Source: Eubacteriales bacterium
Lineage (GTDB): Bacteria > Bacillota > Clostridia > Oscillospirales > CAG-272
Assembly (NCBI GenBank): GCA_045587785.1
Contig: JAZNDA010000008.1
Coordinates: 1-49,644 of the forward strand
Direction: 5' to 3'
Length of the DNA stretch: 49,644 nucleotides
This document shows positions 8,389-30,828 of this stretch, in pieces. How positions within the stretch are numbered: the first letter of the stretch is position 1; each line of letters opens with the position of its first letter. The position numbers were made by a program, and so were the translations under genes. The notes beneath the pieces were generated by a model. That model saw only the letters and a program-made list of their open reading frames with translations, was not told the DNA's origin and made no database searches.

Positions 8389-8463
8389 TGGCACCCGCAA
8401 CAGGAATCGAACCTGTAACTACCCCTTAGGAGGGGGCTATTATATCCATTTAACTATGCAGGC
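8389..8463 (-). tRNA. tRNA-Arg (anticodon CCU), CCA-encoded
   Basis: The reverse complement GCCTGCATAGTTAAATGGATATAATAGCCCCCTCCTAAGGGGTAGTTACAGGTTCGATTCCTGTTGCGGGTGCCA folds as a cloverleaf. Acceptor stem GCCTGCA/TGCGGGT, anticodon loop CUCCUAA, T-arm ACAGG-TTCGATT-CCTGT. Confidence 0.9.
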
Positions 8464-8866: not shown

Positions 8867-8895
8867 TTGACAACCCGAAAAAAATGTGATAGAAT
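8867..8895 (+). promoter_or_regulatory. Sigma-A promoter of the Leu T-box operon
   Basis: TTGACA (8867-8872), 17-nt spacer, TGaTAGAAT (8887-8895). Confidence 0.65.
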
Positions 8896-8915
8896 ATAAA
8901 ATCATTATGAAAAAA

Positions 8916-9170
8916 GGCTGTGAAGGAATTAAGTCCAATCCCTCTTCGGCATAGAGAACCGTCGGTTGGTGTAAGACGGTGCGAACGGATCCGGTCTGTC
9001 TCACTCCCGAGCTGAACCGCAGAAATCAGTAAGCGGTTACGGTTGGCACCGTTATTCTGCCGAGGATTTGTCAGAATCCTTAAGAGGTGATTGCCATGGG
9101 GCAATAACCGGGGTGGTACCGCGAAAGTATTTTCGTTCCCGAAACAGCTGGGCTGTTTCGGGGATTTTTT
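8916..9170 (+). promoter_or_regulatory. T-box leader, specifier CUC (Leu) at 9000-9002
   Basis: Stem I: base GGC/GCU, a 6-nt GA-motif bulge, AG bulge AGAGA (8953-8957), and distal hairpin ACCGTC-GGTTGGTGTAA-GACGGT. Specifier loop reads ...UGU-CUC-A then CUCC-CGA-GCU. T-box core GGTGGTACCGCG at 9112-9123. Terminator CCCGAAACAGC-TGG-GCTGTTTCGGG plus T6 at 9138-9170. Confidence 0.9.
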
Positions 9171-9188
9171 ATTCGAAAGGAGAACAAC

Positions 9189-10568
9189 ATGAAACACATT
9201 GTCATTGCAGACAGCACGCTTTGCAGAGAAGGAAGCGTATTCAGCTTCAAAGAAAGAATAGAGATGGCACGTCAGCTTGAGCGACTTGCCGTTGACGTCA
9301 TTGAACTACCCGAGATCAAGATCGGAAAAACCGATATTTTGCTTGTCAAGACCGTTTCGTCCTTTGTCAAAAAGAGTATCCTTTCGGTAGGTGCAGGTCT
9401 TACCGAGCAAAGCGTTACGGATGCCGCTACGGCACTCTCGCACGCCGAAAAGCCCAGGATCCGCATTGAGCTTCCCATGTCCCCCGTCGGCATGGAATAC
9501 GTATGCCACAAAAAGCCCGAGAAAATGCTGGCGTGGATCTCCCACATCGTAGCTATGGCAAAATCTCTTTGCCCCGACGTGGAATTTTGTGCGATAGATG
9601 CCACGAGAGCCGAGGCTGATTTTCTTGCCTCTGCCATAGAGGCGGCAGAAAAGGCGGGCGCAACAAGTCTTGCCGTTTGTGACAGTGCCGCCGAGCTTCT
9701 TCCCGACGACTTCGCGGCATTTGCCGAGGGCGTGATCAAAAACACCGCGCTTCCCCTCTCCGTACATTGCGACAACAAAAACGGGCTTGCCTGTGCCGAG
9801 GCGATCTTGGCGATCGGCAAGGGCGCGTCGGGCGTCAAGACCGCCGTGGGCGGAGACGGCATTCCGCTTGAGGTATTTTCCAATATGGTAAGAAACTGCG
9901 GAACAAGATATGACTTTTGCTCCTCGATCCGCTATACCGAGCTTCACAGGATCATAGGACAGATCAGCTGGATCTCGGACAATGCGAAAAACGAAAAGAC
10001 ATTGACCGCCCTTGTGGGCAAGGAAAAGGACGATTGGTATCTGGATGACGCGGATGACAAAGAGGCGGTTGCGGCAGCCATCGCAAAACTTGGATATGAT
10101 CTTAGCGACGAGGATATTACCAAGGTATTTGAGGAGTTTTTACGTGTTGCCGCCAAGAAAAAGGTGGGTGCCAAGGAGCTGGAAGCCATTGTGGCAAGCG
10201 TAGCATTGCAGTGCCCTGCCACCTACGTGCTTGAAAATTACGTGATCAACAACGGCAATATTATCTCGTCAAGCGCACAGATCACCCTTGTCAAGGGAGA
10301 CACCCGTCTGCAGGGCGTTTGCATCGGCGACGGTCCCGTGGATGCGTCCTTCCGCGCCGTGGAGCAGATCATCGGCCACCATTACGAACTGGACGATTTC
10401 CAGATCCAGGCGGTCACACAGGGCAAGGAGGCTATGGGCTCGGCACTGGTTCGCCTGCGCTTTGGCGGCAAGCTGTATTCGGGCAACGGCATCTCCACCG
10501 ACATCATCGGTGCTGCCATCCGCGCATATCTCGGTGCGGTCAACAAAATCGTATATGAGGAGGCATGA
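9189..10568 (+). CDS. LeuA-like protein: diverged DRE-TIM (HMGL-like) domain plus LeuA C-terminal allosteric/dimerisation domain
   Basis: The N-terminal domain aligns with 2-isopropylmalate/citramalate synthases, but its motifs are altered (DSTLCREGS for DTTLRDGEQ, HCD for HxH). The C-terminus GDGPVDASFRAVEQIIGH...GKEAMGSALVRLRFGGKLYSGNGISTDIIGAAIRAYLGAVNK is a clear LeuA_dimer domain. Confidence 0.8.
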   Translation: MKHIVIADSTLCREGSVFSFKERIEMARQLERLAVDVIELPEIKIGKTDILLVKTVSSFVKKSILSVGAGLTEQSVTDAATALSHAEKPRIRIELPMSPVGMEYVCHKKPEKMLAWISHIVAMAKSLCPDVEFCAIDATRAEADFLASAIEAAEKAGATSLAVCDSAAELLPDDFAAFAEGVIKNTALPLSVHCDNKNGLACAEAILAIGKGASGVKTAVGGDGIPLEVFSNMVRNCGTRYDFCSSIRYTELHRIIGQISWISDNAKNEKTLTALVGKEKDDWYLDDADDKEAVAAAIAKLGYDLSDEDITKVFEEFLRVAAKKKVGAKELEAIVASVALQCPATYVLENYVINNGNIISSSAQITLVKGDTRLQGVCIGDGPVDASFRAVEQIIGHHYELDDFQIQAVTQGKEAMGSALVRLRFGGKLYSGNGISTDIIGAAIRAYLGAVNKIVYEEA

Positions 10569-13084
10569 GCATGAAGCTTTCTTTTTCAACCAAAGGTTGG
10601 CATGGGCTTGGCTTTGATGAATTTTGCGACATGGCGGAAAACGTCAAATTTCAAGGCATTGAGCTTCACAATATCTATAATGAACTGTTTACCGACAAGG
10701 ACGGTGCATTTCACGATTATACCGCCGCAGCCACGCGCAGACGTCTTTATGAGCGTGGGCTGAGCATCCCCTGTATTGACGTGATCGGCGACATTGCCGA
10801 CGGCGAAAAGGCAGATGCTACAGTGGCAGAGATTGAAAAATGCATGGAAATTGCAGGCAATCTGCAAATTCCGTACGTCCGTCTGCGCGCTTCGGCGGCA
10901 GAGGACAGCGAAAAGGCAGTTGCCGCCACCGAAGCATTGCTCTCTCGCGTGCTTCCCATGGCTGAGCAAAACAAGATCACTCTTTTGGTGGAGACCGCGG
11001 GACTTTTCTGCCGCACCGCCCTGCTTCGCGGATTGCTTGACGGCTTTGCGTCCGATAATCTGGGCGCGCTTTGGGACATGTCGGCATCCTTCTTCGAAAG
11101 CGGAGAGACCCCCGAGCAGATCATTCAAAACCTTGGCGCCTACGTCCGCCACGTGCATATCAGCGATGCCGAAATGGTGGATGGTGAGCTTCGCCACTGT
11201 CTGATGGGCGAGGGCGCACTGCCCATCGCCGATATGATGTTGGCACTCCGCTCTGTCAATTACGACGGCTTTATCTCGCTTGTCTGGGCACCCGAATGGT
11301 GCGACGAGCTGGACGATATGGAGATCATCTTTGCCCAATTCGTTAACTATATGAAGCAATTTGGCAACACTTCACGCAATCAGAAGGCGCTTTACTACAA
11401 CCGTGCTCATACGGGTAAATATATTTGGGAAAAGGACCGTTTGATCGATGCCACCTTCTCTGAGGTTCTTGACCGCATGGTGGAGGAATTCCCCGACCAG
11501 TACGCCTTCAAATATACCACGCTGGACTACACACGTACCTACAGCGAGTTCCGCGATGACGTGGACACCTTCGCCCGAGCACTCATTGCGCTTGGCGTTA
11601 AGGCGGGCACACACGTGGCAGTGTGGGCATCCAACGTACCCCAGTGGTACATTGCCTTCTGGGCTACCGTCAAGCTTGGCGCGGTGCTTGTGACGGTCAA
11701 CACCGCGTATAAAATTCACGAGGCGGAATATCTGTTTAAGCAGTCAGATACGCATACACTCATTATGACCGAAGGAGCAAAAGACTGCAAATACGGCGAT
11801 ATCATTGCCGAGCTTTGTCCCGAGCTTGCAAGCAACAAGACGGGCAGTCCGCTTCACTCCAAACGCTTGCCCTTCCTGCGCAACGTCATTACCGTCGGCT
11901 TCCGTCAAAAGGGCTGTATGGACTGGAACGAGGCACTTGAGCACGCCTCGCAGGTGCCGCTGGAAGAAGTACACCGCATGGCGGCACTGGTCAACAAGGA
12001 TGACGTGTGCAACATGCAGTACACCTCGGGTACCACGGGATTCCCCAAGGGCGTTATGCTTACTCACTACAACGTTGTTAACAACGGAAAATATATTGGC
12101 GACCATATGGATCTGTCCACCGCGGACCGCATGATGATTCAAGTGCCGATGTTCCATTGCTTTGGCATGGTGCTTTCGATGACAGCATCGATGACGCACG
12201 GTACAACCATGCTGCCGTTGCCGTATTTCTCCCCGAAGCCTGCGCTTGCCTGCATTCACAATGAGCATATCACTGCCTTTAACGGCGTACCCACAATGTT
12301 CATTGCCATGATGCAGCATGAGGATTTTGAAAAGACCGACTTCTCGTACATGCGCATTGGTATTATGGCAGGTTCCAACTGTCCCGCGGACCTTATGAAG
12401 GAGGCGGCGACGGGTCGTATGCAAATGAAGGAGATCGTTTCGGTATACGGACAGACCGAGGCTTCGCCCGGATGTACGATGAGCAGCTACTACGATTCGC
12501 TTGCGGTGCGTACCGAGACCGTTGGAAGTGCCTTCGCAAATGTCGAGTGTAAGGTCATCGATCCCGAAACGGGCGAGGAATGCCCCGACGGTGTCAACGG
12601 CGAGTTTGTGGCACGCGGCTACAATATCATGAAGGGCTACTACAAGATGCCGATGGGCACTGCCTCCGCCATCGACGCTGAGGGTTGGCTTCATACGGGC
12701 GACCTTGCATGCCGTACCCCCGAGGGCAACTATCTGATCACGGGAAGACTGAAGGACATGATCATCCGCGGCGGCGAAAACATATACCCCAAGGAGATCG
12801 AGGAGTTTATTTATACCTGCCCGAAGGTACGCGACGTACAGGTCATCGGCGTGCCCGACGAGAAGTACGGCGAGGAGATCATGGCTTGCATCATTCTCAA
12901 AGAGGGTGAGGAAATGACGGCAGAGGAAATGAAGGCATATATCGCCGCCAACATGGCAAGACATAAGGTGCCGAGATATATCGATTTCGTCAAATCCTTC
13001 CCCATGAACGCGGCAGGAAAGATCCTCAAGTACAAGATGCGCGAGGAAGCCGTGGAAAAGCTGGGACTTCAAAAAGCAAAATAA
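10565..13084 (+). CDS. Fusion protein: xylose-isomerase-like TIM barrel (sugar phosphate isomerase/epimerase family) + AMP-dependent acyl-CoA synthetase/ligase
   Basis: The first ~270 aa carry AP_endonuc_2-type motifs (LLVETAG, ALWDM, VRHVHISD, ISLVWAPEW). From about aa 300 the adenylate-forming motifs appear (MQYTSGTTGFPKGVMLTH, YGQTEASP, GWLHTGDLA, GENIYPKEIE, AAGKILK). The ATGA start overlaps the upstream stop. Confidence 0.85.
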   Translation: MSMKLSFSTKGWHGLGFDEFCDMAENVKFQGIELHNIYNELFTDKDGAFHDYTAAATRRRLYERGLSIPCIDVIGDIADGEKADATVAEIEKCMEIAGNLQIPYVRLRASAAEDSEKAVAATEALLSRVLPMAEQNKITLLVETAGLFCRTALLRGLLDGFASDNLGALWDMSASFFESGETPEQIIQNLGAYVRHVHISDAEMVDGELRHCLMGEGALPIADMMLALRSVNYDGFISLVWAPEWCDELDDMEIIFAQFVNYMKQFGNTSRNQKALYYNRAHTGKYIWEKDRLIDATFSEVLDRMVEEFPDQYAFKYTTLDYTRTYSEFRDDVDTFARALIALGVKAGTHVAVWASNVPQWYIAFWATVKLGAVLVTVNTAYKIHEAEYLFKQSDTHTLIMTEGAKDCKYGDIIAELCPELASNKTGSPLHSKRLPFLRNVITVGFRQKGCMDWNEALEHASQVPLEEVHRMAALVNKDDVCNMQYTSGTTGFPKGVMLTHYNVVNNGKYIGDHMDLSTADRMMIQVPMFHCFGMVLSMTASMTHGTTMLPLPYFSPKPALACIHNEHITAFNGVPTMFIAMMQHEDFEKTDFSYMRIGIMAGSNCPADLMKEAATGRMQMKEIVSVYGQTEASPGCTMSSYYDSLAVRTETVGSAFANVECKVIDPETGEECPDGVNGEFVARGYNIMKGYYKMPMGTASAIDAEGWLHTGDLACRTPEGNYLITGRLKDMIIRGGENIYPKEIEEFIYTCPKVRDVQVIGVPDEKYGEEIMACIILKEGEEMTAEEMKAYIAANMARHKVPRYIDFVKSFPMNAAGKILKYKMREEAVEKLGLQKAK

Positions 13085-13199
13085 CCCCCTCACCGAGTAA
13101 AATCTTTATATTTTGATAGTCGTAGCAAAACCATAGAGGTTCTGTTATAGCCGAAGAGAATCGAACCCACCAAAAAACTCTTGCAAACTGAAAACCAAT

Positions 13200-13231
13200 G
13201 CGGATCCCCATAAGTTCGGGGATCCGCTTTT
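13200..13231 (+). terminator. Rho-independent terminator ending the Leu T-box operon
   Basis: GCGGATCCCC-ATAAGTTC-GGGGATCCGC followed by TTTTG. Confidence 0.8.
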
Positions 13232-13287
13232 GTCATGAACCCTCCCACTGCCCATCTCATATATTGGAAGTGAAGGAGGTGAAAATC

Positions 13288-13665
13288 ATGAATTGCCAAA
13301 GAAATACCTGCGTATGGCTGTCGATCATTGTCGGCGTTGTGGCGGGCATACTGCTCGGCGTACTCTACTCGCAAGGTCTGTTCCCCATCGGGTCGATCTT
13401 CCCGTTTTATATTGCATTCGGGTTGCTTAGCTTGCTTTTGTATCCGCTTTATGCCGCGCGCAAGGACGGCGGCTGTTTCTGCCGCTTAAAGGCACTGTTG
13501 CTGACAGCGACGATCGGCACGGTCGTCAGCGCCGCGATCGGTCAGCTGCTTCTTTTGACCACATCCGTAACCGCGACTGCCATTTTGCTGAGCTTTGCCA
13601 CACTCTTTGCCACTATCGGGGCAGTATCTCTTATCTGCCTTGCCGATTGCCATTGCAATAACTGA
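13288..13665 (+). CDS. Hypothetical 125-aa membrane protein with Cys-rich C-terminus
   Basis: ATG at 13288 follows the RBS GAAGGAGG. It has 3-4 hydrophobic helices and ends in ...CLADCHCNN. The ORF-track start at 13198 lies inside the upstream terminator and is rejected. Confidence 0.5.
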   Translation: MNCQRNTCVWLSIIVGVVAGILLGVLYSQGLFPIGSIFPFYIAFGLLSLLLYPLYAARKDGGCFCRLKALLLTATIGTVVSAAIGQLLLLTTSVTATAILLSFATLFATIGAVSLICLADCHCNN

Positions 13666-23897: not shown

Positions 23898-23913
23898 GAT
23901 TCATGTTTTCAAA

Positions 23914-24176
23914 GGCGTCGACGAAGAGGTCGCAGCGAGAGTTCCCCAAAGAGAGATGGCGGTAGGTGCGAGCCATCGGGAATGCGCCGCGTTTGTAGCT
24001 TCCGAGCCGAGAGGAAGAAAGCAGTTTTGCCGTAGACCCTCTCCGTGATTGCTGCGTCAAGGCATAGGAATTGATAGATTCCAAGAGTGGCGGACTTCCG
24101 CAATTTGAGTGGTACCGCGGGTGTAGTATTTTTACACTCGTCTCAAAGTCATTTCACTTTGGGACGGGTGTTTTTT
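23914..24176 (+). promoter_or_regulatory. T-box leader, specifier GUA (Val) at 23995-23997
   Basis: Stem I helices: GGC/GCC, GAAG/CUUC, CGCAGCG/CGCCGCG, TTCCC/GGGAA, GATGGC/GCCATC. AG bulge AGAGA at 23950-23954 and distal loop GGTAGGTGCGA. Specifier loop reads UUU-GUA-G then CUUC-CGA-GCC. T-box core GAGTGGTACCGCGG at 24107-24120. A 15-bp terminator stem at 24135-24170 is followed by T6. Confidence 0.9.
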
Positions 24177-24199
24177 CGTTCCAAGGAAAGGTAGGAAAA

Positions 24200-26488
24200 A
24201 TGGAAAAGATTACAGGACTTGATTTTAAGATCCAAGAAATGGCGGCAAGAATCCGCGAGCTTCGTGAGATCGAAGGCATCTCTATCGAGGATATGGCGGC
24301 AAAGACAGGCGTTACGCCCACAGAATATGCCGACTGCGAAAGCGGAAAAAGCGATCTGAACTTTACTTTCATTTATCGCTGTGCCCTTGTGTTCGGTGTC
24401 AACGTCACTGATATTATCGAAGGCTACAGCCCCAATCTGCGCTCGTACACCGTAACGCGCGCAGGCGGCGGTCAGCACATTGCGCAGGCGCACGGTATGA
24501 CCTATTATAACCTTGCCTACGCGTTTCAGAACCGTATTGCAGAGCCGCTTTACGTACGAAGCGTTTACGATGAGGGTGCACAGCACCGCGACATCGAGCT
24601 TACCTCCCACGCAGGTCAGGAGTGTGACATCGTGGTTGAGGGACAGCTGATGGTGCAGGTAGGCGACCATAAAGAGATCTTAGGTCCCGGCGACAGCATG
24701 TACTACAACAGCGAAACACCCCACGGCATGATCGCCGTTGGCGGCAAGGACTGTATCTTCTACGCCATCGTTCTCAACCCCACGGGCGAGCCCATCCCCG
24801 AGCTTGTCACGCCCAAGGCGATCGCAAGCACCAGCCAGATCAAATTCGATACCAAGGACCGAATTTACAAGAAATATATTGACGTTACCAAGAACGACAA
24901 AGGCACGCCCACGTCGATCACCTTTAAAAACACGGAGAATTTCAACTTTGCGTTTGACCTTGTGGATGCGCTTGCCGAGCGCGAGCCCGAAAAGCTGGCA
25001 ATGCTCCATATTTCGAAGGATCATACCGAACGCCGTTTCACCTTCCTTGACATAAAGAAGGCATCCGCACAGTGCGCCAACTACTTTAAGTCGCTGGGCA
25101 TCAAGAAGGGCGATAAGGTCATGCTGGTTCTCAAGCGTCACTATCAGTTCTGGTTTGCTATGCTGGGTCTGAATAAGCTGGGTGCCATCGCAATTCCTGC
25201 GCCCAATCAGCTTCAGGAGCATGACTTTGAGTACCGCTTCCGTACCGCAGGCATCAGTGCGATCCTCTGTACGGCAGACGGTGACACAGCATCTCAGATC
25301 GAGGGTGCCGCCAAGGATATTCCCGAACTTAAGCACCGCATCATGGTTGGTGGCGAGCGTGAGGGATGGCGTAATTTCGACGAGGAATACACGCTTTACA
25401 GCACGCGCTATAACCGCACGGAGGACGCCCCGAGCGGCGACGATCTGCTGCTGATGTTCTTCACATCGGGCACGTCTGGCTATCCCAAGATCGCGGCACA
25501 TAATCACAAATATCCGCTTGGTCACTTCCATACGGCAAAATATTGGCACAACGTGGACCCCGACGGACTTCACTTCACCATTTCGGACACGGGATGGGCA
25601 AAGTCCATGTGGGGTAAGCTCTACGGTCAGTGGCTGTGTGAGGCTCCAATCTTTGTTTACGATTTCGACCGTTTTGATGCCGCCGACATTCTTCCGCTGT
25701 TTGCCAAATATCAGATCACCACGTTCTGCGCACCGCCCACCATGCTCCGCATGATGGTCAAGCAGGATATCTCCAAGTATGACCTTTCCTCCGTGCGTCA
25801 CATGACCACGGCAGGCGAGGCACTGAACCCCGAGGTCTACCGCCAGTTTGAAAAGGCAACGGGTCTGCAGATCCTTGAAGGCTTTGGTCAGACCGAAAGC
25901 ACCATGATCATTGGTAATATGCGCGGCGCTTCGCATAAGATCGGCTCTATGGGTAAGCCCGCTCCCATTTACAAGGTCAGCCTTGTGGATACCGAGGGCA
26001 ACCCCGTTCCCGACGGTGAAACGGGCGAGATCGTCATCGACGTTCGTGACGGCGCACCCTGCGGTTTGTTCACGGGCTACTACGGCGACGAAGAAAAGAC
26101 CAAAGAGGTATGGCATGACGGCTTCTATCATACGGGCGACACCGCATGGCGCGATGAGGACGGCTTCTATTGGTACGTCGGACGTGTGGATGACGTCATC
26201 AAGTCCTCGGGCTACCGCATCGGTCCCTTTGAGATCGAGAGCGTTATTATGGAGCTTCCGTACGTCCTTGAATGTGGCGTTTCCGCCGCACCCGATGAGG
26301 TCAGAGGTCAGATCGTCAAGGCAAGCATCGTGCTGACCAAGGGCACAGAGGGCACTGAGGAGCTCAAAAAAGAAATTCAAAACTACGTCAAGGAGCATAC
26401 CGCTCCCTACAAATACCCCCGTCTTGTGGTGTTCCGCGATGAGCTTCCCAAAACCACAAGCGGTAAGATCCAGAGAAACAAGCTATGA
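24200..26488 (+). CDS. Fusion: XRE-type HTH + cupin domain + medium-chain acyl-CoA synthetase (ACSM/MACS clade)
   Basis: The start is set at ATG 24200, after the T-box terminator, with RBS GGAAAGGTAGG. HTH region: AARIRELREIEGISIEDMAAKTGVTPTEYADCESGK. Cupin region: HAGQECDIVVEGQL...GDSMYYNSETPHG. ACS motifs: FFTSGTSGYPK, EGFGQTES, YHTGDTAWRDEDGFYWYVGRVDDVIKSSGYRIGPFEIES, SGKIQR. Confidence 0.85.
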   Translation: MEKITGLDFKIQEMAARIRELREIEGISIEDMAAKTGVTPTEYADCESGKSDLNFTFIYRCALVFGVNVTDIIEGYSPNLRSYTVTRAGGGQHIAQAHGMTYYNLAYAFQNRIAEPLYVRSVYDEGAQHRDIELTSHAGQECDIVVEGQLMVQVGDHKEILGPGDSMYYNSETPHGMIAVGGKDCIFYAIVLNPTGEPIPELVTPKAIASTSQIKFDTKDRIYKKYIDVTKNDKGTPTSITFKNTENFNFAFDLVDALAEREPEKLAMLHISKDHTERRFTFLDIKKASAQCANYFKSLGIKKGDKVMLVLKRHYQFWFAMLGLNKLGAIAIPAPNQLQEHDFEYRFRTAGISAILCTADGDTASQIEGAAKDIPELKHRIMVGGEREGWRNFDEEYTLYSTRYNRTEDAPSGDDLLLMFFTSGTSGYPKIAAHNHKYPLGHFHTAKYWHNVDPDGLHFTISDTGWAKSMWGKLYGQWLCEAPIFVYDFDRFDAADILPLFAKYQITTFCAPPTMLRMMVKQDISKYDLSSVRHMTTAGEALNPEVYRQFEKATGLQILEGFGQTESTMIIGNMRGASHKIGSMGKPAPIYKVSLVDTEGNPVPDGETGEIVIDVRDGAPCGLFTGYYGDEEKTKEVWHDGFYHTGDTAWRDEDGFYWYVGRVDDVIKSSGYRIGPFEIESVIMELPYVLECGVSAAPDEVRGQIVKASIVLTKGTEGTEELKKEIQNYVKEHTAPYKYPRLVVFRDELPKTTSGKIQRNKL

Positions 26489-27153
26489 GAAACTATAAAC
26501 GTATCACGCTTGTTTGCGGTCATTACGGAAGCGGAAAAACAAACGTCGCTGTCAACATGGCGTTTGACCTTAAAAAACAGTTTGATAAGGTCGCGCTTGC
26601 CGATCTGGACATCGTCAATCCCTATTTCCGTGCCAAGGACAGCCAAAAACAGCTTCTTGAGGCAGGCATCCGCTTTATCGGATCGGAATACGCCAACTCC
26701 AACGTGGATATTCCCGCGCTTCCGCAGGATATGTACGCCATCACCGATGATAAGACCATGAAATGTATTCTGGATATCGGCGGAGATGACCGCGGTGCAT
26801 TAGCACTTGGGCGTTTGGCTCCTGCCATTCTTGAAGAAAACGATTACGAGATGCTGATGGTGATCAACCGTTCCCGTCCGCTCTCGCACGACGCCCCCTC
26901 GACCATCGAGATCATGAGAGAGATCGAAACGGCAGGCGGCATCCGCTTCACGGGGCTTATCAACAACACCAATCTCGGCGTGGAAACCACCGTGGAGGAT
27001 ATCCTTGATTCTATCCCCTATGCAAAAGAGGTCTCGGCACTGTCGGGACTGCCCCTTGTGGCAACCTCCGTACGGCAGGACCTTGCCCCCGCCCTTGAAG
27101 GAAAAGCGGAAAACATCTTCCCTCTTGTCCTTCATCAATTTCAAAACATTTGA
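26485..27153 (+). CDS. P-loop NTPase (SIMIBI/CooC-MinD-like), function unknown
   Basis: Walker A GHYGSGKTN, followed by LADLDIVNPYFR. 222 aa. The ATGA start overlaps the ACS stop. Confidence 0.6.
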   Translation: MRNYKRITLVCGHYGSGKTNVAVNMAFDLKKQFDKVALADLDIVNPYFRAKDSQKQLLEAGIRFIGSEYANSNVDIPALPQDMYAITDDKTMKCILDIGGDDRGALALGRLAPAILEENDYEMLMVINRSRPLSHDAPSTIEIMREIETAGGIRFTGLINNTNLGVETTVEDILDSIPYAKEVSALSGLPLVATSVRQDLAPALEGKAENIFPLVLHQFQNI

Positions 27154-27179
27154 TTTTACACAGAAAGGAAAAATAAATC

Positions 27180-27386
27180 ATGGCAAAACTGACATTCAAA
27201 ACCGATTTCTGCAAGGGCTGTGGACTTTGCGTGGATGTTTGTCCCAAAAAGGTTCTCAGACTTGCCACAGACAAGATCAACAAAAAAGGACACCATCCCG
27301 CCGAGGCGATCGACGAGAGCGCTTGCGTTGGCTGTGCATCCTGCGCAATGATGTGTCCCGACTGCATTATCAAAGTGGAAAGGTGA
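27180..27386 (+). CDS. 2-oxoacid:ferredoxin oxidoreductase delta subunit (2x[4Fe-4S] ferredoxin)
   Basis: CKGCGLCVDVCP and CVGCASCAMMCP motifs. 68 aa. Confidence 0.85.
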   Translation: MAKLTFKTDFCKGCGLCVDVCPKKVLRLATDKINKKGHHPAEAIDESACVGCASCAMMCPDCIIKVER

Positions 27387-27395
27387 GTGAAAACA

Positions 27396-28463
27396 ATGTC
27401 TGAAAAAGTACTTATGAAAGGTAACGAAGCCATTGCCGAGGCGGCGATCATTGCAGGCTGCCGTCATTACTTCGGTTACCCCATTACCCCCCAGACCGAG
27501 ATCGCCGCATATATGGCAAAGAGAATGCCCAAGATCGGCGGTACGTTCCTTCAGGCAGAGAGTGAGATCGCTGCCATCAATATGGTTTACGGCGTTGCCG
27601 CTGCAGGCTACCGCGTTATGACTTCCTCCTCCAGCCCCGGTGTATCGCTTAAGGGCGAAGGTCTATCTTACCTCGCGGGTGCGGATCTGCCTTCTTTCAT
27701 TGTCAACGTACAGCGCGGAGGCCCCGGTCTTGGCGGCATCCAACCCAGCCAGTCGGACTACTTCCAGGCAACCAGAGGCGGCGGACACGGTGACTATCAC
27801 ATGATCGTGCTTGCTCCCGCATCGGTACAGGAGATGGCAGAGCTTACCGTTCGCGGCTTCGAGCTTGCCGATACCTACCGCATGACCACCATGGTGCTTG
27901 CAGACGGTACCATGGGACAGATGATGGAGCCCGTTTCGCTTGACTTTGACGTAAAGCCTCAGATCGAAAAGCCCTGGGCAACCACGGGCACGGGAATGAA
28001 ACGTCCCCACAATATCGTCAACTCGCTCTTCCTTGACCCCGAGGAGCTTGAGAAATTTAACTTTGACCGCTATAAGCGTTATGAGCAGATCGAGAAGAAC
28101 GAGGTACTCTATGAGGAATATCTCATGGACGATGCCGAGATCGCCATCGTTGCCTTCGGTATTGCCGCACGTGTGGCTAAGAGTGCCATCAACGAGGCAA
28201 GAACCCTTGGCATCAAGGCAGGTATGATCCGTCCGATCACCCTTTGGCCCTTCCCCAAGGCTCCCTTCAAGAAGGCCGCCGGCAAAGTAAAGCAGTACAT
28301 ATCGGTTGAGCTTTCCATGGGTCAGATGATCGAGGACGTAAAGCTTGCAAGCGAATGTCGCGTGCCTGTCACGCTTTGCAATCGCGTGGGCGGTATGATC
28401 CCCTCTCCCGCACAGGTGCTTGAAAGCATCAAGAATGCCGCAAAGAACGGAGGTAACAACTAA
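27396..28463 (+). CDS. 2-oxoacid:ferredoxin oxidoreductase alpha subunit
   Basis: LMKGNEAIAEAAIIAGCRHYFGYPITPQTEI is a typical KorA/VorA N-terminus. ATG 27396 lies 9 nt after AGGTGA. An in-frame GTG at 27387 is an alternative start. Confidence 0.85.
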   Translation: MSEKVLMKGNEAIAEAAIIAGCRHYFGYPITPQTEIAAYMAKRMPKIGGTFLQAESEIAAINMVYGVAAAGYRVMTSSSSPGVSLKGEGLSYLAGADLPSFIVNVQRGGPGLGGIQPSQSDYFQATRGGGHGDYHMIVLAPASVQEMAELTVRGFELADTYRMTTMVLADGTMGQMMEPVSLDFDVKPQIEKPWATTGTGMKRPHNIVNSLFLDPEELEKFNFDRYKRYEQIEKNEVLYEEYLMDDAEIAIVAFGIAARVAKSAINEARTLGIKAGMIRPITLWPFPKAPFKKAAGKVKQYISVELSMGQMIEDVKLASECRVPVTLCNRVGGMIPSPAQVLESIKNAAKNGGNN

Positions 28464-29218
28464 TGGCTGTAGTATTTGATAAACCCCATGCACTTGCCGA
28501 TGTGCCGCTTCATTACTGCCCCGGATGCACCCACGGTATCGTTCACCGCTTGGTTGCCGAGGTTCTGGATGAGCTTGAGATCGAGGGCAAAACCATCGGT
28601 ATCGCCCCCGTCGGTTGCTCGGTTATGGCATACAACTATTTTAACTGCGATATGATCGAAGCCGCTCACGGCCGTGCGCCCGCTGTGGCTACGGGTGTTA
28701 AGCGTGCCAATCCCGAAAACGTGGTCTTCACCTATCAGGGTGACGGCGACCTTGCGTCCATCGGTATGGCGGAGACCGTCCATGCCGCGGCAAGAAACGA
28801 AAACATCACCATCATCTTTATCAACAACGCGATCTACGGTATGACGGGCGGTCAGATGGCGCCCACGTCGCTTGTAGGTCAGGTCACACAGACCTCTCCT
28901 TACGGCAGAGATCCCAAGGCGTGCGGCTATCCCATCCGTGTGTGCGAAATGCTTTCGGAGCTGGAGGGCCCCGAGTATCTGGCTCGTGTGACCGTTAACA
29001 CCGTACCGAGGATCCGCGAGGCAAAAAAAGCAATCAAGAAGGCATTCCAGAATCAGCTTGAGGGCAAGGGCTTCTCACTGGTAGAAGTGGTCTCCACCTG
29101 CCCCACCAACTGGGGTATGACACCAAAGGCGGCTCTCCAGTGGATCGACGAGAAGATGCTTCCCCAGTATCCGCTCGGCGTATATAAGGACAGAACCGCA
29201 AAGGAGGAAACAAAATGA
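28463..29218 (+). CDS. 2-oxoacid:ferredoxin oxidoreductase beta subunit (TPP-binding)
   Basis: YCPGCTHGI plus the TPP motif GDGDLASIGMAE...NNAIYGMTGGQ. TAATG overlap with the alpha subunit. Confidence 0.88.
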   Translation: MAVVFDKPHALADVPLHYCPGCTHGIVHRLVAEVLDELEIEGKTIGIAPVGCSVMAYNYFNCDMIEAAHGRAPAVATGVKRANPENVVFTYQGDGDLASIGMAETVHAAARNENITIIFINNAIYGMTGGQMAPTSLVGQVTQTSPYGRDPKACGYPIRVCEMLSELEGPEYLARVTVNTVPRIREAKKAIKKAFQNQLEGKGFSLVEVVSTCPTNWGMTPKAALQWIDEKMLPQYPLGVYKDRTAKEETK

Positions 29219-29748
29219 GCACCAAACAACTTCTTTTCTCCGGCTTTGGCGGACAGGGTATTCTGTTTGCAGGAAAATTTATCGCCTATAAGGGCCTCAT
29301 CGACAATAAGCAGGTAAGCTGGCTTCCCTCTTACGGCCCCGAAATGCGCGGCGGTACGGCAAGCTGCGGTGTTATTGTCAGCGATGAGCCCGTTGGCTCT
29401 CCCATCGTTTCCGCTCCCGACGTGCTGATCGCCATGAACCTGCCCTCTCTTGATAAATATGAAGACTCGGTGGCATCGGGCGGCATCATTCTTCTTGACT
29501 CCTCGCTTATCGAGCGTAAGGTTAGACGCACCGACGTGACCGTGTACGCCATCCCCGCAACTCAGATGGCAAGCGATAACGGCATGCCTACCCTTGCCAA
29601 CATGATCCTTGTCGGAAAGCTGCTGAAGGCACTTGACGACTTTGGCGAGGAAAGCGTATCCGCGGCACTTAAGAAGGTAATTTCCGCAAAGCATGCAGAC
29701 ATGATGGACGTCAACCGCAAGGCGATGCAGCTTGGCGCGGACTATTGA
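29215..29748 (+). CDS. 2-oxoacid:ferredoxin oxidoreductase gamma subunit
   Basis: FSGFGGQGILFAGKF...PSYGPEMRGGTA is typical of the gamma subunit. ATGA overlap with the beta subunit. Confidence 0.85.
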   Translation: MSTKQLLFSGFGGQGILFAGKFIAYKGLIDNKQVSWLPSYGPEMRGGTASCGVIVSDEPVGSPIVSAPDVLIAMNLPSLDKYEDSVASGGIILLDSSLIERKVRRTDVTVYAIPATQMASDNGMPTLANMILVGKLLKALDDFGEESVSAALKKVISAKHADMMDVNRKAMQLGADY

Positions 29749-29763
29749 TCGGAGGAAATAAAA

Positions 29764-30828
29764 ATGGAAATCAGATTTGAAAAAAATACAGCTCCCAAGC
29801 AGAAGCCCGACAGCAGTATACTTGGCTTCGGTAAGTTCTTCACCGACCATATGTTCATGATGGACTATTCGGCAGATGAGGGATGGCATGACGCACGCAT
29901 TATCCCCTTTGGTCCTTTGGCGATTCACCCTGCCTGCACCGCACTTCACTACGGCTCGGAGATCTTTGAGGGTCTTAAGGCGTACAGACGTGCCGACGGT
30001 AAGGTGCAGATGTTCCGTCCCATGGAGAACATCCGCCGTATGAACAACTCGGCAGAGCGTCTTTGCCTGCCTCAGATCCCCGAGGATCTGGCACTTGAGG
30101 TTCTCACAAAATTTGTGGCAACCGAGCAGGAGTGGACACCGTCAGCTTCGGGCACCTCGCTTTATCTGCGTCCGTTTATGTTCGGAAACGATGAAACGCT
30201 GGGCGTTCATGCCGTTCACCATGCTACTTTTGTCATTATCGCCTCTCCCGTCGGAAGCTACTATAAAGAGGGCATCAACCCCGTCAAGATCATGATCGAG
30301 GACGAGGACGTCCGCGCTGTACGCGGCGGTACGGGCTATGCCAAGTGCGGCGGCAACTATGCCGCATCCAACCGCGCAGGCGAGCGCGCCGAGAAGAAGG
30401 GATACTCGCAGGTGCTTTGGCTGGACGGCGTGGAGAGAAAGTACATTGAGGAAGTCGGTGCCATGAACGTCATGTTCAAGATCGACGGCAAGATCGTCAC
30501 CCCCATGCTCAGCGGCTCCATCCTTCCCGGTATCACCCGTAAATCCTGCATTGAAGTGCTGAAAAAGGAGGGCTATGAGGTTGAAGAAAGACTTCTGAGC
30601 ATCGACGAGCTTGACGAGGCACTGAAGAGCGGCAAGCTGGAAGAGGCGTGGGGTTGCGGCACCGCAGCCGTTGTTTCCCCGATCGGCGAGCTTTGCTATA
30701 AGGATAATAAGTACATTATCAACGATGGCAAGATCGGTGCAGTCACCCAAAAGCTGTATGACACTCTGACAGGCATCCAGTGGGGCGCTCTTGAGGATTG
30801 CTTCGGCTGGACTTACGCTATTGACTGA
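29764..30828 (+). CDS. ilvE: Branched-chain amino acid aminotransferase (fold type IV)
   Basis: 354 aa: FTDHMF...LHYGSEIFEGLKAYR...GGTGYAKCGGNYAAS...EEVGAMNVMF...GITR. Confidence 0.9.
   Translation: MEIRFEKNTAPKQKPDSSILGFGKFFTDHMFMMDYSADEGWHDARIIPFGPLAIHPACTALHYGSEIFEGLKAYRRADGKVQMFRPMENIRRMNNSAERLCLPQIPEDLALEVLTKFVATEQEWTPSASGTSLYLRPFMFGNDETLGVHAVHHATFVIIASPVGSYYKEGINPVKIMIEDEDVRAVRGGTGYAKCGGNYAASNRAGERAEKKGYSQVLWLDGVERKYIEEVGAMNVMFKIDGKIVTPMLSGSILPGITRKSCIEVLKKEGYEVEERLLSIDELDEALKSGKLEEAWGCGTAAVVSPIGELCYKDNKYIINDGKIGAVTQKLYDTLTGIQWGALEDCFGWTYAID

Follow-up and report, generated by a model that had tools for sequence, protein, structure and literature searches.

The DNA analyzed here is a 49,644-nucleotide stretch of a Eubacteriales genome (contig JAZNDA010000008.1 of assembly GCA_045587785.1), referred to below as the window, and the gene in question is the open reading frame at positions 9189-10568 of its forward strand, whose product of 459 amino acids (aa; P0001) resembles 2-isopropylmalate synthase (LeuA). 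Our findings suggest that this product is a LeuA-like pseudoenzyme, in which a degenerate catalytic barrel is joined to a well-conserved LeuA regulatory domain. We propose, at a probability of about one half for the model as a whole, that it serves as a leucine-sensing accessory subunit of an isovalerate-activating acyl-CoA ligase encoded by the next gene. A role as leucine sensor and ligase partner fits three observations: all 15 leaders that were read have a leucine T-box, the ligase gene is the immediate neighbor in each of the 34 carrier genomes, and the 2-isopropylmalate pathway is missing in almost all carriers.

The assignment of the gene is supported by its reading frame, by Pfam and NCBIfam matches, by its homologues and by an AlphaFold2 model, which together divide the protein into three regions. 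The first, at aa 1-224 (9189-9860, +), is a degenerate DRE-TIM (HMGL-like) barrel, recognized by Pfam HMGL-like (PF00682) at aa 15-224 with 108.6 bits and delimited further by structural comparison, by variable or deleted catalytic columns and by its substitution rates. A linker follows at aa 225-326 (9861-10166, +), defined by alignment to canonical LeuA, by a test for the Pfam HCS_D2 domain and by model confidence; here the accessory subdomain I is gone, while a subdomain-II-like helical remnant (LGYDLS...) is present. The third region, at aa 327-454 (10167-10550, +), is the LeuA allosteric/dimerization domain, which matches LeuA_dimer (PF08502) at 97 bits, carries the loop GDGPVDA at aa 380-386, and is further marked out by its identity within the family and its substitution rates. 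The predicted structure is confident, with a mean predicted local distance difference test (pLDDT) score of 87.8, and aa 268-281 are predicted to be disordered (pLDDT < 50). Foldseek superposes the barrel of the model on that of Listeria LeuA (3ewb) with a root-mean-square deviation of 1.8 Å and a TM score of 0.91, and the full-length model matches LeuA of M. tuberculosis, including the leucine-bound structure 3fig. At the sequence level, matches to LeuA in the PDB are restricted to the barrel (aa 4-224), and when the C-terminal domain was searched on its own against PDB sequences, no solved regulatory domain of a short-form enzyme was retrieved. The NCBIfam LeuA equivalogs all score the protein well short of their cut-offs; NF002086 comes highest (272 bits against 532), and TIGR00973 reaches 242 bits against a cut-off of 599.

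The loss of the catalytic apparatus is well supported by an alignment of two canonical LeuAs of the same order with 38 members of the family, whose identity to the window protein ranges from 40 to 97%. A preliminary description of the gene, made from the sequence of the window, had reported that DSTLCREGS replaces DTTLRDGEQ, that DSAA replaces DTVG, that HCD replaces the metal-binding HxH and that GGDGIPLE stands at the GxGERAGN segment; these strings are found exactly, at aa 8-16, 165-168, 193-195 and 221-228, respectively. Across the family, the 2-oxoacid-binding Arg of RDG (C12 in the window) is Cys in 27 members, Lys in four and Arg in four, and the metal-binding Asp of the same motif (R13) is Arg in 19, Lys in seven, Ser in four and Val in three. 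The Glu of AED (I136) is replaced by Leu (12), Val (11), Ile (6) and others, and the Thr of DTVG (S166) by Ser (18), Asn (10) or Asp (6). At the HxH motif, the first His (H193) is most often Arg (9), Ser (6) or Ala (5), with His in three members and others in the remainder, and the second (D195) is Asp (16), Ser (11) or Glu (4), with His in one of the 38.

Two further catalytic segments are deleted in the window protein and in all 38 members: the five residues of GERAG, and about 29 residues containing AFAHESGIHQ..TYE, which correspond to accessory subdomain I and hold the catalytic His. Pfam HCS_D2, the model for that subdomain, matches none of the 38 family members and both canonical LeuAs. 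In addition, the RDGEQSPG loop is shortened by four residues in the window protein and varies in length across the family. Catalysis by 2-isopropylmalate synthase requires the accessory domain, and the leucine site sits in the regulatory domain (PMC9860122).

The pseudoenzyme half of the preliminary description is thus borne out by catalytic positions that are both substituted and hypervariable and by two catalytic segments that are deleted throughout. The same description had allowed that the catalytic residues might survive in shifted positions, and the 38-member alignment gives no such arrangement as a feature of the family. A one-residue shift in which R13-E14-G15 would stand for R-D-G was considered and rejected, as was a re-tooled metal site built from H193 and D195; in both cases the columns are hypervariable and the arrangement is confined to the close clade. 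Because the degeneration is common to more than 100 sequence clusters and to 34 of 151 genomes, it is not a product of chance or of sequencing error. The protein is LeuA by descent and by fold and by none of the catalytic membership criteria that we checked, and, judging from these comparisons, it is very probably neither an isopropylmalate nor a citramalate synthase.

Catalytic loss has not been followed by decay. The homologues fall into over 100 sequence clusters (64-97% identity), most of them from metagenome-assembled genomes of Clostridia and Ruminococcaceae, where they are labeled as “hypothetical protein” by NCBI and as “2-isopropylmalate synthase” by JGI. The reading frame is intact in all of these clusters and in the 34 genomes. 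When the window gene is compared with two close homologues, the ratio of nonsynonymous to synonymous substitution rates (dN/dS) is 0.07-0.09 overall, 0.08-0.10 in the barrel and 0.02-0.07 in the regulatory domain. Over the whole family, pairs of members are on average 43% identical in the barrel, 35% in the linker and 68% in the regulatory domain, whereas the corresponding values for the canonical LeuA pair are 64%, 66% and 51%; the pattern of constraint is inverted relative to real LeuA. The regulatory domain, which the preliminary description had called well conserved, is indeed the most conserved region of the protein, and it has the GDGP(I/V)DA loop and more than 20 positions in common with canonical LeuA. 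Within the barrel, residues D8, E39, S98, Y104, E132, D137, R140 and D165 are retained, and P96, E103, H107, K109 and K217 are near-invariant and specific to the family.

Maximum-likelihood analysis groups the 38 members into a single clan; the branch leading to it is long (length 1.15; support 100/99), and the clan's neighbors are the canonical LeuAs of the order. This clan, together with the shared deletions, indicates a single origin of the family. In a midpoint-rooted drawing, for which the root is not established, the earliest-branching member comes from G109, the sole carrier genome with a leu operon, an observation that is only suggestive.

The expression signals of the gene point to leucine. 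A T-box leader occupies 8911-9143 (+) and matches the full-length Rfam model RF00230 with 105.5 bits, against a gathering score of 93. According to the cmscan alignment and the sequence, its specifier at 9000-9002 is the Leu codon CUC, with a purine (A9003) as the next base, and the genome has two copies of tRNA-Leu(GAG). The expression platform is a terminator hairpin with a T-run (9135-9172, +), consisting of a 14-pair stem at 9135-9165 followed by TTTTTATT, and it overlaps the 3' end of the match to the T-box model. A promoter-like site (TTGACA, a 17-nt spacer and TAGAAT with a TG extension; 8867-8895, +) sits 16 nt 5' of the T-box and scores 11/12 in a consensus scan, as a pattern match only. 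The CUC specifier is present in 15 of 15 leaders, namely that of the window and 14 others located directly upstream of homologous genes, the proteins of which are 40-100% identical. Downstream, a terminator-like hairpin at 13200-13227 (+), with a 10-pair G+C-rich stem followed by TTTTGT, would close the operon.

The second gene of this operon (10565-13084, +) encodes a xylose-isomerase-like TIM barrel (aa 24-241) fused to an ANL acyl-CoA ligase (aa 303-819), as identified by Pfam AP_endonuc_2, AMP-binding and AMP-binding_C; its top NCBIfam match is PRK12583, of the fatty-acid CoA ligase family. One candidate start, the ATG at 10565, overlaps the stop codon of the LeuA-like gene as ATGA. An alternative, the ATG at 10571, lies 2 nt past the stop and has GGAGG 8-9 nt upstream; it gives the N-terminus MKLSFST, with which the homologues all begin, and is the more likely start.

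We sampled 151 genomes of the order, of which 34 carry the LeuA-like gene. In each of these carriers, as in all 22 loci that were inspected, its immediate downstream neighbor, on the same strand, is the TIM::ligase gene. Among orthologues, the TIM domain is less conserved than the ANL part (38% against 74%), and its metal-ligand columns are variable (E/K, D/N, H/R/K/L and E/V/L/D/A, the window protein having Val at the fourth). In a PDB sequence search, the TIM domain (window 10565-11449) gave only a remote match to MJ1311, with an E-value of 1e-4. This degeneration suggests that the domain may be a second degenerate barrel, serving as a docking module rather than as an enzyme. A complex prediction for the LeuA-like protein and the ligase TIM domain returned a score of 0.00, which is below the mark and speaks neither for nor against binding.

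The ligase is also found without its neighbor. About 23 genomes in the sample encode a TIM::ligase from the same family (58-63% identity) and have no LeuA-like gene. Of six such partnerless ligases inspected, three have a T-box, in each case with a CUC specifier (L036 in G009, L039 in G104 and L041 in G038), and G009 combines its stand-alone ligase with a full canonical leucine pathway, in which LeuA and LeuB were found. Since stand-alone ligases under a leucine T-box occur in genomes that lack the LeuA-like gene, the enzyme can function without such a partner. It is the ligase that provides the core leucine-related function, and the LeuA-like protein is an accessory to it where the feedback-regulated canonical pathway is missing.

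That pathway is largely missing from the carriers. No LeuA, LeuB or LeuC-type (LeuCD) gene scores above cut-off in the genome of the window, which is 86.8% complete. The other LeuA-like match in this genome is accounted for by a cluster on contig C129 (1665-7042; L003 and L009-L011 of G000) comprising an HMGL-like gene (a 464-aa open frame), a 650-aa aconitase gene and a 400-aa gene resembling isocitrate dehydrogenase (ICDH); this cluster looks like a Re-citrate-synthase-type oxidative branch of the tricarboxylic acid cycle. The 34 carriers are all without a second, canonical short-form LeuA, whereas 56 of the non-carriers give the canonical two-piece match. LeuB scores above cut-off in one of the 33 other carriers (G109), and LeuB-like genes below the cut-off occur in G012 and G071; the remaining 30 have no LeuB-type gene, with either ICDH-length matches only or none. 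A LeuC-type aconitase was not found in four of five near-complete carriers. Two proposals were set aside on these grounds. The idea that the protein replaces LeuA in a genome that keeps LeuBCD is at odds with leuB and leuCD not being found in its own genome or in nearly all carriers, and a malate-synthase-like reaction of isovaleryl-CoA with glyoxylate to give 3-isopropylmalate was dropped because a LeuB that could use the product is absent.

A companion module in the same window points to another route to branched-chain amino acids. At 23909-30828 (+), 11 kb downstream of the leucine operon, lies an operon identified by tblastn with the gene set of a homologous locus (L006; 62-85% identity), by a T-box scan and by its open reading frames. 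Its leader, at 23909-24148, has the specifier GUA (Val) and scores 82.8 bits (E-value 3e-18); this is below the gathering score of 93, so that a default T-box scan misses it. The genes at 24200-30828 encode a helix-turn-helix (HTH)-cupin::acyl-CoA ligase, a CbiA-like NTPase, a ferredoxin-like delta subunit, the alpha, beta and gamma subunits of a 2-oxoacid:ferredoxin oxidoreductase, and the transaminase IlvE. Locus L008 is arranged likewise, and in many homologous loci the LeuA-like/ligase pair lies directly 3' of the genes for the cupin-ligase, the CbiA-like NTPase, the delta, alpha, beta and gamma subunits of the oxidoreductase and IlvE. Similarly, an Ile (AUC) T-box lies upstream of an HTH-cupin::ligase gene in L027 (2132-2362, -). 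The picture suggested by this Val, Ile and Leu set is one ligase module for each branched-chain amino acid, with a shared oxidoreductase and transaminase, and the gene set is as expected if isobutyrate, 2-methylbutyrate and isovalerate undergo reductive carboxylation. A gene for an Amidohydro_2 protein (PF04909) is often located directly 3' of the pair (L006:11894-12709, L008:11903-12718 and L033:10903-11712), and it precedes the pair in L028 (5379-6161). In the window, it is not found beside the pair, and only a 38%-identical homologue is present, on contig C25.

Taken with these data, the model that we favor runs as follows. The gene would encode a catalytically inactive LeuA paralogue that keeps the TIM-barrel fold, a subdomain II remnant and the regulatory domain. 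Through the CUC T-box, it would be transcribed together with the TIM::acyl-CoA ligase gene only when tRNA-Leu is uncharged. The ligase would convert isovalerate into isovaleryl-CoA, which the 2-oxoacid:ferredoxin oxidoreductase encoded 11 kb downstream would carboxylate reductively to 2-oxoisocaproate, and IlvE would transaminate this product to leucine. A dimer of the LeuA-like protein would bind leucine through its regulatory domain and act in trans on the ligase as a feedback-sensing accessory subunit, with P96, E103, H107, K109 and K217 as a candidate docking surface of the barrel. The simplest effect would be feedback inhibition of isovalerate activation, adding a fast allosteric layer to the slower control by the T-box. 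More tentatively, and at somewhat less than even odds, the regulatory domain of LeuA, carried on a dead barrel, would have become a trans-acting leucine sensor of a non-homologous ligase: these Clostridia, on abandoning the isopropylmalate pathway, would have retained its allosteric module and moved it to the first committed step of a salvage route from fatty acid to leucine.

Several observations weigh against this proposal. In close comparisons, purifying selection on the barrel nearly equals that on the regulatory domain (dN/dS of 0.087 against 0.074), and the near-invariance of P96, E103, H107, K109 and K217 implies that the barrel has a specific role, one that might consist in binding a ligand or in catalysis instead of docking. 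In real LeuA, the accessory subdomain I carries the allosteric signal (PMC9860122); this subdomain is missing here, and a signal to the partner therefore needs another path. The genome of G109, which is 100% complete, has a full leu operon as well as the LeuA-like/ligase pair, so the link to pathway loss is not absolute, and strict mutual exclusion with the canonical pathway, which we had considered, was rejected. Among longer homologues, a search that is weak for this purpose found no fusion of the LeuA-like protein to the ligase, which would have spoken for a physical association; its sole yield was four fusions of LeuA with aconitase, each about 1000 aa long. These four proteins (P0122-P0125), which combine HMGL-like, HCS_D2, LeuA_dimer and aconitase domains, are apparent natural fusions of the LeuA-LeuC type. 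Finally, the choice of isovalerate as the substrate of the ligase comes only from genomic context, and we infer the binding of leucine, the physical complex with the ligase, and both the existence and the direction of an effect on ligase activity.

Other explanations have to be weighed against the same evidence. The one that survives best, unlikely as we consider it, is that the protein is a structural adaptor without any sensing role, which would dimerize or stabilize the ligase, or bridge it to the oxidoreductase so that isovaleryl-CoA is channeled, with the regulatory domain serving as a dimerization module only. Strict adjacency to the ligase gene would suit such an adaptor; LeuA_dimer is, as its Pfam name says, also a dimerization domain, and DmpG-type aldolases, which belong to the DRE-TIM group, form channeling complexes and are represented among the fold matches by 1nvm and 4jn6. 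What speaks for sensing instead is the regulatory domain itself, since a pairwise identity of 68%, the GDGP(I/V)DA loop and the more than 20 canonical positions exceed the usual needs of dimerization, and the near-confinement of the protein to genomes without the canonical feedback-regulated pathway points the same way.

It is also rather improbable that the protein is a re-tooled enzyme, the alternative that the preliminary description had offered, in which the barrel, alone or with the TIM barrel of the ligase, would form a new active site for a leucine-supply step such as one involving isovaleryl-AMP/CoA or 2-oxoisocaproate. This alternative is weakened by catalytic loss throughout the family: all canonical pocket-lining and metal positions are hypervariable, loop lengths vary, and no alternative cluster of conserved His, Asp or Glu is evident at the strand ends. 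The canonical ligand columns of the fused TIM domain are likewise non-conserved, and the ligase stands alone as a leucine T-box gene in genomes without the LeuA-like protein. What keeps the alternative in play is the purifying selection on the barrel, at a dN/dS of about 0.09 (0.08-0.10), with its eight retained and five near-invariant residues, and the frequent Amidohydro_2 neighbor, which hints at chemistry beyond the ligase step.

Doubtful as well is a leucine sensor with some other target, be it the oxidoreductase, IlvE, a transporter or gene expression. An intact regulatory domain within an operon under leucine control would agree with it, as would the several loci in which the gene lies directly 3' of IlvE in one long operon. 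The invariant neighbor, however, is the TIM::ligase (34 of 34) and not IlvE or the oxidoreductase, whose genes in the window are 11 kb away under a different T-box; in addition, Pfam finds no DNA- or RNA-binding domain in the LeuA-like protein. A working but divergent isopropylmalate or citramalate synthase, which the top family matches to LeuA models and the JGI label might suggest, is highly improbable given equivalog scores well short of the cut-offs, the absence of metal ligands, Arg and Glu as well as of the subdomain with the catalytic His, and a genome that, like those of almost all carriers, has no LeuB or LeuCD to receive the product. A decaying pseudogene of a lost leucine pathway, to which the degenerate motifs and missing pathway partners might be attributed, is already refuted by the intact frames in more than 100 clusters and 34 genomes, the dN/dS of about 0.07-0.09, the confident predicted fold, the dedicated T-box and the translational coupling to the ligase gene.

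The proposed accessory subunit can be placed beside systems that are already known. Bacterial short-form LeuA itself (EC 2.3.3.13; TIGR00973/NF002086; structures 3EWB, 3RMJ and 1SR9/3FIG) has the same DRE-TIM fold, the LeuA_dimer domain and the GDGPxDA loop, whereas the window protein is without the Arg and Asp of RDGEQ, the HxH motif, GERAGN, the catalytic Glu and the accessory subdomain I. Many leu operons of Firmicutes are under a leucine T-box, as is the LeuA-like gene; unlike leuA, the latter is never beside leuBCD and always beside the TIM::acyl-CoA ligase gene. Citramalate synthase (CimA) and homocitrate synthase, regulated enzymes of the DRE-TIM group that perform Claisen condensations, are built on the same barrel, and both are active and have the complete motif set. 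CimA has a homologous C-terminal effector domain, which binds Ile (PMC9860122). Within the same order, CimA-like proteins encoded next to a real LeuA retain RDG, HCHND and GERCGN. Two such paralogues, L042:4036-5652 (-) and L043:6746-8323 (+), have the motifs DxTLRDGAQ, HCHND and GERCGN and adjoin an intact LeuA gene; TIGR00169 finds no LeuB above cut-off in their genomes, which may use a divergent dehydrogenase.

A closer parallel is offered by HisZ, an inactive paralogue of histidyl-tRNA synthetase, which senses histidine as the regulatory subunit of the short-form ATP phosphoribosyltransferase HisG. In both cases, a dead paralogue drawn from the metabolism of the same amino acid would still be able to bind that amino acid and would provide end-product feedback on a non-homologous enzyme of a committed step. 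The complex and the allostery of HisZ are experimental, whereas their equivalents for the LeuA-like protein are inferred; the fold families also differ, and in our case the partner, an ANL ligase, carries a second degenerate TIM barrel as a fused domain.

The route itself has a long history. Many small-genome gut and rumen Clostridia need or use branched-chain fatty acids. The conversion of isovalerate to leucine was shown by labeling decades ago, and, to our knowledge, the genes and the control of this route are undescribed. The gene set described above is what reductive carboxylation requires, namely acyl-CoA ligases, the four subunits of a 2-oxoacid:ferredoxin oxidoreductase and IlvE, with a Val, Ile or Leu T-box switching each ligase module, whereas classical descriptions of the process name no genes and no allosteric component. 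Those descriptions concern anaerobes of the rumen and gut, in which labeling since the 1960s has traced branched-chain fatty acids into branched-chain amino acids by reductive carboxylation (PMC7356843). Our literature search found no description of the family, of a LeuA pseudoenzyme or of a LeuA-derived accessory in reductive carboxylation.

Against this background, the locus points to a leucine-specific ligase with a dedicated accessory protein for the route from isovalerate to leucine. If the proposal is correct, it would represent a HisZ-like case for the branched-chain amino acids and the first genetic component to be assigned specifically to the leucine branch of reductive-carboxylation salvage. 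From the perspective of pseudoenzyme evolution, the catalytic half of a LeuA has been freed from constraint while its effector-binding half has become more constrained, a change almost confined to lineages without the rest of the pathway. Moreover, annotation of these proteins as “2-isopropylmalate synthase” falsely credits their genomes with a step of the leucine pathway and distorts predictions of auxotrophy and cross-feeding in the gut. In isolation, the leucine-binding module could also be of use as a sensor part.

Two neighboring features of the leucine operon complete the description of the region. On its 3' side, a 155-aa open reading frame at 13198-13665 has no Pfam or NCBIfam match, and its called start is doubtful because it overlaps the terminator-like hairpin at 13200-13227. 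On its 5' side, a gene for tRNA-Arg(CCU) at 8389-8463 (-) lies between recA/recX and the operon.

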